Shown here: positions 451-35,058 of the stretch, in pieces | How the letters are laid out: every line of letters begins with the position of its first letter | Position numbering within the stretch: the stretch's first letter is position 1 | Source: Candidatus Aenigmatarchaeota archaeon | GTDB taxonomy: Archaea > Aenigmatarchaeota > Aenigmatarchaeia > CG10238-14 > SCSR01 | Length of the DNA stretch: 38,230 nt | Assembly (NCBI GenBank): GCA_039091335.1 | Contig: JAWCME010000004.1 | Coordinates: forward strand, 1 to 38,230 | Direction: 5' to 3' | Made by a program: the position numbers and the translations under genes | The notes under the pieces: generated by a model | Seen by the model: only the letters and a program-made list of their open reading frames with translations | Database searches by the model: none | What the model was told of the DNA's origin: nothing

Positions 451-572
451 AGCTCGGGATGGGAACTTCAGAGCAAAGCTCTTTTGAACCCATATGCGTC
501 GGTCTCAACTTATCATCAATTTTCAAAAGACCAACTGCAGCCGACTGCCTAACCAGATTCGGCCACCCGAGC
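451..572 (-). tRNA. tRNA-Cys(GCA) with two introns (37/38 at 534-504, 31 nt; 59/60 at 482-465, 18 nt); CCA not encoded
   Basis: Reverse complement: GCTCGGG TG GCCG AATCTGGTT AGGC A GTCGG CT GCA G[TTGGTCTTTTGAAAATTGATGATAAGTTGAG]A CCGAC GCAT ATGGG TTCAAA[AGAGCTTTGCTCTGAAGT]T CCCAT CCCGAGC T. The acceptor (7 bp), anticodon (5 bp) and T (5 bp) stems pair perfectly, and U73 is the Cys discriminator. Confidence 0.95.
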
Positions 573-34930: not shown

Positions 34931-35058
34931 GGGCCATTAGCTCAGTCTGGTTAGAAACACTTTTAAAGTGTTAACATGCAATCGCCTTATAAACGGCACA
35001 GACTGAGAAAGCGATAGAAATCCGCTAAAGGTCGCCGGTTCGAATCCGGCATGGCCCA
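34931..35058 (+). tRNA. tRNA-Ile(UAU) with three introns (23/24 at 34956-34977; 37/38 at 34992-35009; 43/44 at 35016-35028); CCA not encoded
   Basis: GGGCCAT TA GCTC AGTCTGGTTA GA[AACACTTTTAAAGTGTTAACAT]GC A ATCGC CT TAT A[AACGGCACAGACTGAGAA]A GCGAT[AGAAATCCGCTAA]AGGTC GCCGG TTCGAAT CCGGC ATGGCCC A. Removing the three inserts gives a perfect cloverleaf with A73. Each insert has a 4-bp central helix in BHB/BHL register. Confidence 0.9.

Follow-up and report, generated by a model that had tools for sequence, protein, structure and literature searches.

A short tRNA-Cys intron of an Aenigmatarchaeota archaeon as a putative one-K-loop box C'/D' self-guide aimed at C39

The introns of euryarchaeal tRNA-Trp genes are roughly 60-105 nt long and carry the boxes C, D', C' and D together with two guides. 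As described for Haloferax volcanii and for Pyrococcus (sR50), these RNAs reside at the canonical 37/38 position of the tRNA that they target, direct ribose methylation to its nt 34 and 39 according to the N+5 rule, and form a guide pairing that competes with the splice-competent fold (PMC7994747, PMC4033218). In the account of Randau 2012 (PMC3491384), tRNA-Trp had until then been the only known intron-borne case, to which the elongator tRNA-Met of Nanoarchaeum equitans, a DPANN archaeon, was added as a proposal; its 66-nt intron has box C/D signals and is drawn with box C and box D. Cm34 of tRNA-Leu(CAA) and tRNA-Met is also reported as a known or predicted target of free-standing C/D sRNAs (PMC7994747, PMC4033218, PMC7668247), and the trans-acting RNAs described for Pyrococcus (Leu(CAA), Leu(UAA), Met, Trp) and Haloferax (sR-tMet) are bipartite and not intron-borne (PMC7994747, PMC4033218).

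On whether half a C/D guide can function, published findings diverge. The pseudo-symmetric C/D build has been called "absolutely conserved" in nature, with archaeal C/D RNAs described as always bipartite, and a single-site C/D complex was reported as active but site-unspecific (Hardin and Batey, PMC1635284). A single-domain guide is reported to work in Xenopus oocytes (PMC6770171), half-mer C/D RNAs are described as functional, and the synthetic monopartite K-loop guide MMG5, together with L7Ae, Nop5 and fibrillarin, is described as an efficient and specific modifier of position 5 in 8-11-bp substrates (Wang, Yang and Ye 2022, PMC9670817). Archaeal guides are given as 10-12 nt (PMC7994747). 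In the main texts of the literature consulted we found neither a published tRNA-Cys intron guide nor a natural guide with one K-loop, and the passages on archaeal tRNA modification that were consulted hold no mention of Cm39 in tRNA-Cys.

Here we describe a candidate of this kind in the tRNA-Cys(GCA) gene of a Candidatus Aenigmatarchaeota archaeon. The window, by which we mean the whole stretch of DNA analysed, comprises 38,230 nt of contig JAWCME010000004.1 (assembly GCA_039091335.1), and the gene lies on its minus strand at 451-572 (122 nt including the discriminator base); it is the only tRNA-Cys gene of the assembly. Read by eye, the acceptor (GCUCGGG/CCCGAGC), D, anticodon (GUCGG/CCGAC) and T (AUGGG/CCCAU) stems are all paired, and the anticodon loop reads CUGCAG...A. 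Our own tRNA-Cys covariance model scores the gene at 71.3 bits; the model is generic, matching all tRNAs, and served only to choose candidate tRNA-Cys loci. The 5' exon (535-572) holds tRNA nt 1-37, with the anticodon GCA at 538-536 and G37 at 535. It is followed by the anticodon-loop intron UUGGUCUUUUGAAAAUUGAUGAUAAGUUGAG (504-534, 31 nt), placed at the canonical 37/38 position; cuts at 35/36 or 36/37 can be drawn equally well because the AG ending the exon equals the AG ending the intron. A second, 18-nt intron interrupts the T loop near 59/60 (approximately 465-482, ambiguous by a base or two in a run of A). This T-loop intron is absent from five orthologues, which read TTCAAAT there, and a similar hairpin insertion occurs in six other genomes. 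The double interruption explains why ARAGORN with default settings reported no tRNA in the window (with introns allowed it mis-parsed multi-intron genes) and why the only Rfam match in the window at gathering score was another tRNA, at 34931-35058. No contig from the one metatranscriptome run of the same study matched 300-900, a result that carries no weight either way.

The arrangement inside the 37/38 intron had been proposed from the letters of the window in an initial annotation, and the positions given there (G37, the 31-nt intron, both boxes, the five-base loop, G531 and C39) all proved exact on the minus strand. The guide GUUGGUCU (528-535) runs from N+9 to N+2 and includes G37. As had been claimed, it is complementary over 8 bp, one of them a G-U, to AGACCGAC (498-505), which consists of the last two intron bases, A38 (503) and C39 to C43 (C43 at 498). 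Its fifth position, N+5, is intron base G4 (531), which faces the predicted methylation site C39 (502). Downstream of the guide follow a D'-like box UUGA (523-526), a variable loop AAAU (519-522), which with U518 makes five bases between the sheared pairs, and a C'-like box UGAUGA (513-518). The competing splice helix is weak, again as had been proposed: the 3' strand of the bulge-helix-bulge (BHB) central helix, GUUG (506-509), faces CUGC of C32-C35 (540-537) through C-G, U.U, G.U and C-G, and thus through only two Watson-Crick pairs. In its geometry the arrangement would suit a BHB, with A36 G37 U1 and A30 G31 A38 as candidate 3-nt bulges, and the outer helix h' has 1-2 bp.

Compared with the tRNA-Trp introns, the tRNA-Cys intron and its homologues share the 37/38 position and the predicted self-targeting, and differ in being 28-42 nt long with one putative K-loop, one guide and the terminal C/D absent. 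The initial annotation had noted this absence, and box C and box D are indeed both wanting at 451-572: no box C precedes the guide, and CUGA is missing at the expected distance of about 12 nt beyond the C' box. In place of a complete set of C, D', C' and D with two guides, only D', C' and one guide were found, and a permissive Rfam search of 430-600 returned C/D (snoRNA) families at chance level only (E 1.9-9.6). A putative second guide, CUUUUGAAA, directed at the T loop with C56 at N+5, was dropped, the UUGA that it needs being absent from the orthologues. The intron of N. equitans tRNA-Met, as published, is about twice as long as the introns considered here. The closest parallel in layout is the engineered MMG5, which likewise has a 5' guide followed by a single K-loop; it is synthetic, carries a 12-nt guide and was described with trans substrates, Saccharolobus proteins and a temperature of 70 C (PMC9670817), whereas the natural module would have as its substrate the precursor that carries it. 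The tRNA-Cys duplex of 8-9 bp (N+2 to N+9 or N+10, with G.U at N+7) is short, as had been cautioned, falling below the 10-12 nt given for archaeal guides, and lies inside the range described for MMG5.

A BLAST search with exons and intron across 70 genomes of the family found full-length matches in 12 of them, the window's own included (88-100% identity, six genera), so that homologous introns of 28-33 nt are present in 11 other family genomes. Outside the tRNA-Cys gene, no sequence aligned among these 12 genomes. Within the family, intron bases 1-12 are invariant except for U2-to-C (two genomes), U8-to-C (one) and U10-to-C (two), and the last six intron bases are almost invariant, with the stretch between the boxes freely variable. 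Since the intron is as conserved as the anticodon arm and the flanks are saturated with change, the tRNA-Cys intron is under selection. Related versions stand on other anticodon stems, namely a 29-nt one on ACCGG/CCGGU in three genomes of a sister family and a 42-nt one on GCCGG/CCGGC in one genome of another genus. The remaining tRNA-Cys genes of the order have no 37/38 intron or one of a different type, and many sister genomes carry a tRNA-Cys without the module, which is therefore dispensable. When 28 distinct arms were parsed, with one group that the script had wrongly scored as intron-less restored to the module-bearing C39 class, all module-bearing arms had C39, and the 15 arms without the module comprised 12 with G39 and three with C39, an association for which we make no statistical claim since the genomes are interrelated.

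A pattern scan over one genome per prokaryote species (GGCTGCAG, 1-7 free bases, TGGT, four free bases, TGA, 3-9 free bases, GATGA) extended this range. Of the 99 stretches retrieved, 17 were tRNA-Cys genes, seven duplicating sequences already in hand and ten being new: one record from Woesearchaeota, two from Micrarchaeota (Micrarchaeia), four from Bathyarchaeota (Bathyarchaeia), one each from Thermoprotei and Nanoarchaeia, and one from an uncultured archaeon. Six further stretches were inspected and found not to be tRNA genes, and the remainder, nearly all bacterial, failed a T-loop filter, as expected for a pattern with 20 fixed bases. The Bathyarchaeia copies carry the textbook boxes CUGA and UGAUGA. 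Named public records in which a tRNA-Cys gene of this type occurs go under Candidatus Aenigmatarchaeota archaeon or uncultured archaeon.

In total, 25 distinct tRNA-Cys introns, taken from records of DPANN, Micrarchaeota, Bathyarchaeia and Thermoprotei, were compared, each anchored on its xUGA box and A38. Fifteen had been found through their exons alone and ten through the pattern, which fixes TGGT, TGA and GATGA and thereby N+4 to N+7 and the box letters; box conservation and register in these ten rows are therefore not independent evidence, and the pattern left N+2, N+3, N+8, N+9 and the entire 3' strand unconstrained in them. Every position from N+2 to N+9 is paired in 23 to 25 of the 25 introns. 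Pairing is complete (25/25) for N+4, N+5 and N+6 with A38, C39 and C40, and changes in composition further out: N+7 with nt 41 is UG in 22, CG in two and UA in one; N+8 with nt 42 is UA in 13 and CG in 12; N+9 with nt 43 is GC in 19 and AU in six; N+3 with the last intron base is CG in 15, GC in four, UA in two, AU in two and unpaired in two; and N+2 is paired with the penultimate intron base in 24 of 25. N+1, which has no consistent partner, is paired in 16 of 25, as expected for C/D guides, which usually leave this position free. N+5 lies opposite C39 in all 25 introns, though the guide is preceded by anything between 0 and 6 nt of intron; the register is pattern-fixed in ten rows and free in the 15 exon-found ones. 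The facing of C39 by the fifth nucleotide upstream of D', which the initial annotation had described for the window's copy, is thus found throughout.

The covariation of guide and target that had been proposed as a check also emerged. On the MAFFT alignment of the 25 sequences, 98.4% of 182 guide-helix cells are paired, four of the eight pairs change on both sides, and the covariation score is 0.300 against 0.129 +/- 0.019 in shuffles, with none of 500 shuffles reaching it (because of their relatedness, the sequences are less independent than shuffle counts suggest). A shift of the partner by 1-3 columns reduces guide pairing to 18-50%. The covariation shows that the predicted guide pairs within the unspliced precursor, since N+3 and N+2 co-vary with intron bases, and not with G37 and A36. 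Over the same 25 sequences the anticodon stem is 100% paired and the BHB central helix 78%, with its outer pairs C32-G and C35-G kept in 22/25 and 25/25, respectively. The guide hairpin and the anticodon stem, which had been read as mutually exclusive in the window's copy, are therefore both maintained across the alignment, as two folds that exclude each other.

The boxes are conserved in those features that a K-loop would need. All 25 distinct introns have xUGA or UCGA as D' box (letters pattern-fixed in ten), and the GA of D' together with the GA of C' is kept in 24 of 25, or in 14 of the 15 exon-found rows. The non-Watson-Crick partners are conserved as D' A opposite C' G, G opposite A, U opposite U, and U or C opposite G, around a loop of 4 to 9 bases whose sequence is not fixed. 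Invariant non-canonical partners around a free loop are predicted by a K-loop and not by a plain stem-loop, and the D'/C' pair would accordingly, as judged from these letters, be able to form one. It had been suggested that conservation of the boxes be examined in orthologous introns: the GA dinucleotides stand, and UGAUGA itself does not, the common form being (A/U)GAUGA and the orthologues reading GAUGA, GAUAG or GAAAG. Exceptions are UCGA in two genomes and AAUGA in a single one (G006), where the first sheared pair needs a G. A further reservation, that D' is UUGA and not CUGA, falls away: D' usually reads UUGA in this clade, so that the letters are no defect.

We estimated how readily such an arrangement arises by chance by shuffling the tRNA-Cys intron 40,000 times. 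A box pair of this form appeared in 2.7% of shuffles, and a box pair with an upstream guide placing N+5 on nt 34 or 39 in 0.0025%, the motif having been defined post hoc. Minimum free energies point in two directions. For the whole precursor, the guide helix (-51.3 kcal/mol) is favored over an enforced anticodon stem (-44.0 kcal/mol), and for the isolated arm ViennaRNA prefers the anticodon stem with a hairpin of U5-A22, C6-G21 and U8-A19; the two calculations disagree, and folding energies therefore do not settle which fold prevails.

The host genome (569,737 bases in 29 contigs, 33% G+C, 87% complete) encodes all three core C/D proteins, whose presence had been named as a point to confirm: profile scores are 249 bits for fibrillarin, 170.5 bits for Nop and 100.5 bits for L7Ae, and the genes for Nop5 and fibrillarin are adjacent. 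The Nop5 reading frame has 339 aa, of which residues 4-310 align with Saccharolobus Nop5 (3id5_A); this full-length alignment indicates an ordinary build and rules out a shortened Nop5 adapted to half-guides. RtcB is encoded as well. A splicing endonuclease Pfam domain was not found in this 87%-complete assembly, and since 20 of 20 relatives searched have it, its absence is taken as an assembly gap. Strict and relaxed regular expressions recovered no free-standing bipartite C/D sRNAs from the genome, and a looser C...D search outside long open reading frames gave four candidates. One of the four, at C1:92982-93049, is antisense within the rRNA region and probably spurious. An intron of the 16S rRNA gene, read by eye, contains a bipartite C/D-like RNA in the order AUGAGA, 13-nt spacer, CUGA, UUA, AUGAUGA, 12-nt spacer, UUGA, in which UUGA seems to serve as a D box too.

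The module is not confined to tRNA-Cys. Four more intron-bearing tRNA genes of the genome contain it, with N+5 on the wobble base in each: tRNA-Leu(CAA) (C27:403-515) with UUGAGCU CUGA AUC GAUGA aimed at C34, tRNA-Met(CAU) (C1:95264-95388) with UAUGAGCU UUGA ... AUGAAA aimed at C34, and two genes for tRNA-Glu(UUC) (C23:24121-24257 and C18:587-710) with UUCGAAAGGU UUGA ... GAUGA aimed at U34. Four introns, shuffled 40,000 times each, yielded a module with N+5 on nt 34 or 39 at frequencies of 2.5e-5 to 1.75e-4, a figure that is generous, as the motif was defined post hoc, but with a large margin. An order-wide BLAST survey of 118 genomes, from which 30 loci per tRNA were taken for Leu(CAA) and Met, placed N+5 opposite nt 34 in 20 of 21 distinct tRNA-Leu(CAA) arms and in 27 of 28 distinct tRNA-Met(CAU) arms, the 28th being no tRNA. 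In tRNA-Leu(CAA) the N+2 to nt 31 pair is CG in 15 and UA in five, so that G31-to-A31 is matched by C-to-U at N+2. One tRNA-Leu intron of the order (G014) has lost the boxes and retained the antisense stretch. In a sister family, tRNA-Thr(UGU) of four genomes carries a module that, read by eye, is aimed at nt 39. The C34 aimed at by the Met and Leu(CAA) introns is the position known or predicted to be served in trans by the free-standing sRNAs cited above. The tRNA-Met introns of this order, which resemble that of N. equitans in their box C/D signals, carry a stretch antisense to C34. The duplexes in both tRNA-Met and tRNA-Leu are only 6-7 bp, below the range described for MMG5, and pairing in cis should help them. 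The tRNA-Cys intron thus belongs to a broader group of tRNA introns that share this module.

We read the 37/38 intron as a minimal monopartite box C'/D' self-guide within pre-tRNA-Cys with C39 as its predicted target, a reading that is well supported in silico and to which we assign a probability of roughly 0.6. The nascent precursor would fold so that the guide covers its 3' junction, the first seven intron bases and G37 pairing with nt 38-43 and the two bases that end the intron, and thereby opening the anticodon stem. Directly 3' of this duplex, UUGA and (U)GAUGA would form a K-loop with tandem sheared G.A/A.G pairs, U.U and U.G, which L7Ae would bind before recruiting Nop5-fibrillarin, and fibrillarin would 2'-O-methylate C39, the base opposite the fifth guide position. 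Once the RNP had departed, the cloverleaf anticodon stem and the relaxed BHB could form, and the endonuclease and RtcB would complete splicing, methylation thus preceding it. Against this reading stand the short duplex, a K-loop read from the letters, the many sister genomes whose tRNA-Cys lacks the module, and the absence of a terminal C/D K-turn and of a second guide; the worry that half a guide might not work is eased, by analogy, by the reported activity and specificity of engineered monopartite K-loop guides with L7Ae (PMC9670817). The published intron-borne guides that we found in the literature consulted are those of tRNA-Trp and the proposed one of Nanoarchaeum tRNA-Met.

The main rival accepts the K-loop and the competing helix as real and gives them a role in the control or timing of splicing, or in a check of tRNA-Cys maturation, in place of methylation; an L7Ae-bound intron or the guide helix would block endonuclease cutting, or aid folding. 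The mutual exclusion of guide helix and anticodon stem plus BHB would suit such a role, as would the weak BHB central helix, 78% paired overall and with U.U and G.U in the window's copy, and a covariation partner that lies in the unspliced precursor. There is also a reported precedent in mammalian intronic kink-loop RNAs with 15.5K, which are compact K-loops acting on their host intron and suppress its excision, although they lie in spliceosomal introns and are described as orphans without guide function (bioRxiv 10.64898/2026.08.03.742641). However, a function in splicing does not predict that N+5 should fall on nt 39 in tRNA-Cys and tRNA-Thr and on nt 34 in tRNA-Met, tRNA-Leu and tRNA-Glu, which are known guided sites, and any sequestering helix would suffice for it, with no need of a K-loop. 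We hold this explanation, on its own, to be rather unlikely; it is compatible with methylation and does not exclude it.

Two further explanations would dispense with a present guide function altogether. The module could be the footprint of a mobile or decaying C/D element in tRNA introns, of which the host needs no more than a hairpin, as might be suggested by the patchy distribution (12 of 70 family genomes), by the similar box sequences in introns of different tRNAs, by the tRNA-Leu intron of G014 that has its antisense stretch without boxes, and by the mobility proposed for C/D sRNAs (PMC3491384). Yet guide, GA dinucleotides and register persist between saturated flanks in different families and phyla, and changes in the pairing are compensated, which is the mark of purifying selection on the pairing and not of decay, and we consider this account improbable. 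Least probable is an ordinary BHB intron, in which the 5' part pairs with the UGAUGA region as outer hairpin h' and the boxes are chance products of A+U-rich sequence. The pairs U5-A22, C6-G21, U8-A19 and U9.G18 can be drawn in the window's copy and are used in the isolated-arm fold, and the genome holds 450 copies of TGATGA, both strands counted. Over the 25 sequences, though, this hairpin is only 65.6% paired, its score is reached by 124 of 500 shuffles, N+3 changes although the G of GAUGA with which it should pair stays constant, and the whole arrangement has a chance of 2.5e-5 per shuffle; the hairpin was rejected, there being no covariation for it across the alignment.

Taken together with the introns of the other tRNAs, the self-guide reading opens onto a broader one, which we regard as an even call: that natural monopartite C/D guides of about 25 nt (one K-loop and a 7-9-nt antisense) are widespread in the mini-introns of five or more tRNA species, work in cis within a bistable precursor with methylation before splicing, and are ancient, possibly ancestral to bipartite C/D RNAs. 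If true, intron-borne self-guides, until now textbook oddities of tRNA-Trp and one proposed Nanoarchaeum tRNA-Met case, would be a general archaeal device of tRNA maturation, used in several tRNAs and phyla, and their occurrence in records of DPANN, Micrarchaeota, Bathyarchaeia and Thermoprotei would mean that the design is ancient. It would likewise follow that one K-loop is enough in nature, a point that matters to the long debate over why C/D RNAs are bipartite, and no RNA-guided modification device smaller than these modules would be known. A 122-nt transcript and three recombinant proteins make a simple test system. For the archaea themselves, some tRNA introns would owe their retention to the guide that they supply to their host tRNA, and genome-reduced DPANN archaea would obtain anticodon-arm methylations without dedicated enzymes or free-standing sRNA genes.

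The arrangement of an antisense guide, a YUGA-type D' box, a variable loop and a GAUGA-type C' box is also found in four other tRNA genes of the window's own genome (G000), all on the minus strand and all carrying it in the 37/38 intron with the N+5 base on nt 34, namely tRNA-Leu(CAA) (contig C27:403-515), tRNA-Met(CAU) (C1:95264-95388), and the first and second genes for tRNA-Glu(UUC) (C23:24121-24257 and C18:587-710, respectively). The module is conserved order-wide in 20 of 21 distinct tRNA-Leu and 27 of 28 distinct tRNA-Met sequences. Judged from its sequence, the tRNA-Leu(CAA) of one relative (G014, locus L124) seems to represent a lineage with loss of the K-loop, its intron keeping the antisense UUGAGCU and carrying CAGAGAGAAG in place of the boxes. 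A further variant occurs in tRNA-Thr(UGU) of a sister family (loci L080, L081, L082 and L095), where the 5' end of the intron UCGCUAGUUUGAUUGAUGAUAGCAAGCU pairs with the final intron bases and nt 38-42, placing G39 opposite N+5. The partners of the sheared pairs lie two bases apart in three of these four introns, a spacing that perhaps leaves too little room for a K-loop, and are separated by a longer loop in the remaining one.

Inspection by eye also identified a bipartite C/D-like RNA in a 16S rRNA intron of G000 (C1, minus strand), directly 3' of the 16S ACACACCGCCCGTC motif, which reads AUGAGA, 13 nt, CUGA, UUA, AUGAUGA, 12 nt and UUGA, the last occupying the place of the D box. Within the window, the sole tRNA reported by Rfam (37.3 bits) is an intron-bearing gene at 34931-35058 (plus strand), in which we read by eye three insertions (D stem, after nt 38, and variable region) and an anticodon loop, CUUAUAA, giving the anticodon UAU (Ile). 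Its anticodon intron contains CUGA and no convincing guide, the best complement being 6/9.

A search for PF01974, the catalytic domain of the tRNA splicing endonuclease, succeeded in 20/20 relatives and gave no match in the G000 assembly, which is nevertheless rich in introns of the bulge-helix-bulge (BHB) type; since the assembly is 87% complete, the gene is probably located in its unassembled part. The Nop5 gene (L002 1087-2106, C28) translates with XXXX near residue 315, reflecting a brief stretch of N in its nucleotide sequence.

The tRNA-Cys gene carries a second, 18-nt intron in the T-loop (window 465-482, minus strand), folding as the hairpin AGAGC-UUU-GCUCU followed by UGAAGU. This intron is absent from five orthologues, and a similar one, ending 3' in CUGAAAU or UUGAAAU, occurs in six relatives (G092, G062, G014, G015, G083 and G063), where this end and the T-loop UUCA can be drawn as a possible BHB central helix. 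The guide GUUGG... (528-535) almost duplicates GUCGG, the anticodon stem's 5' strand (541-545), with U replacing C, so that the guide helix has a G.U where the anticodon stem has G-C. This exchange, seen in 22 of the 25 tRNA-Cys sequences (in 10 of these the pattern used for the search imposed it), may tilt the equilibrium to the cloverleaf once the RNP departs.
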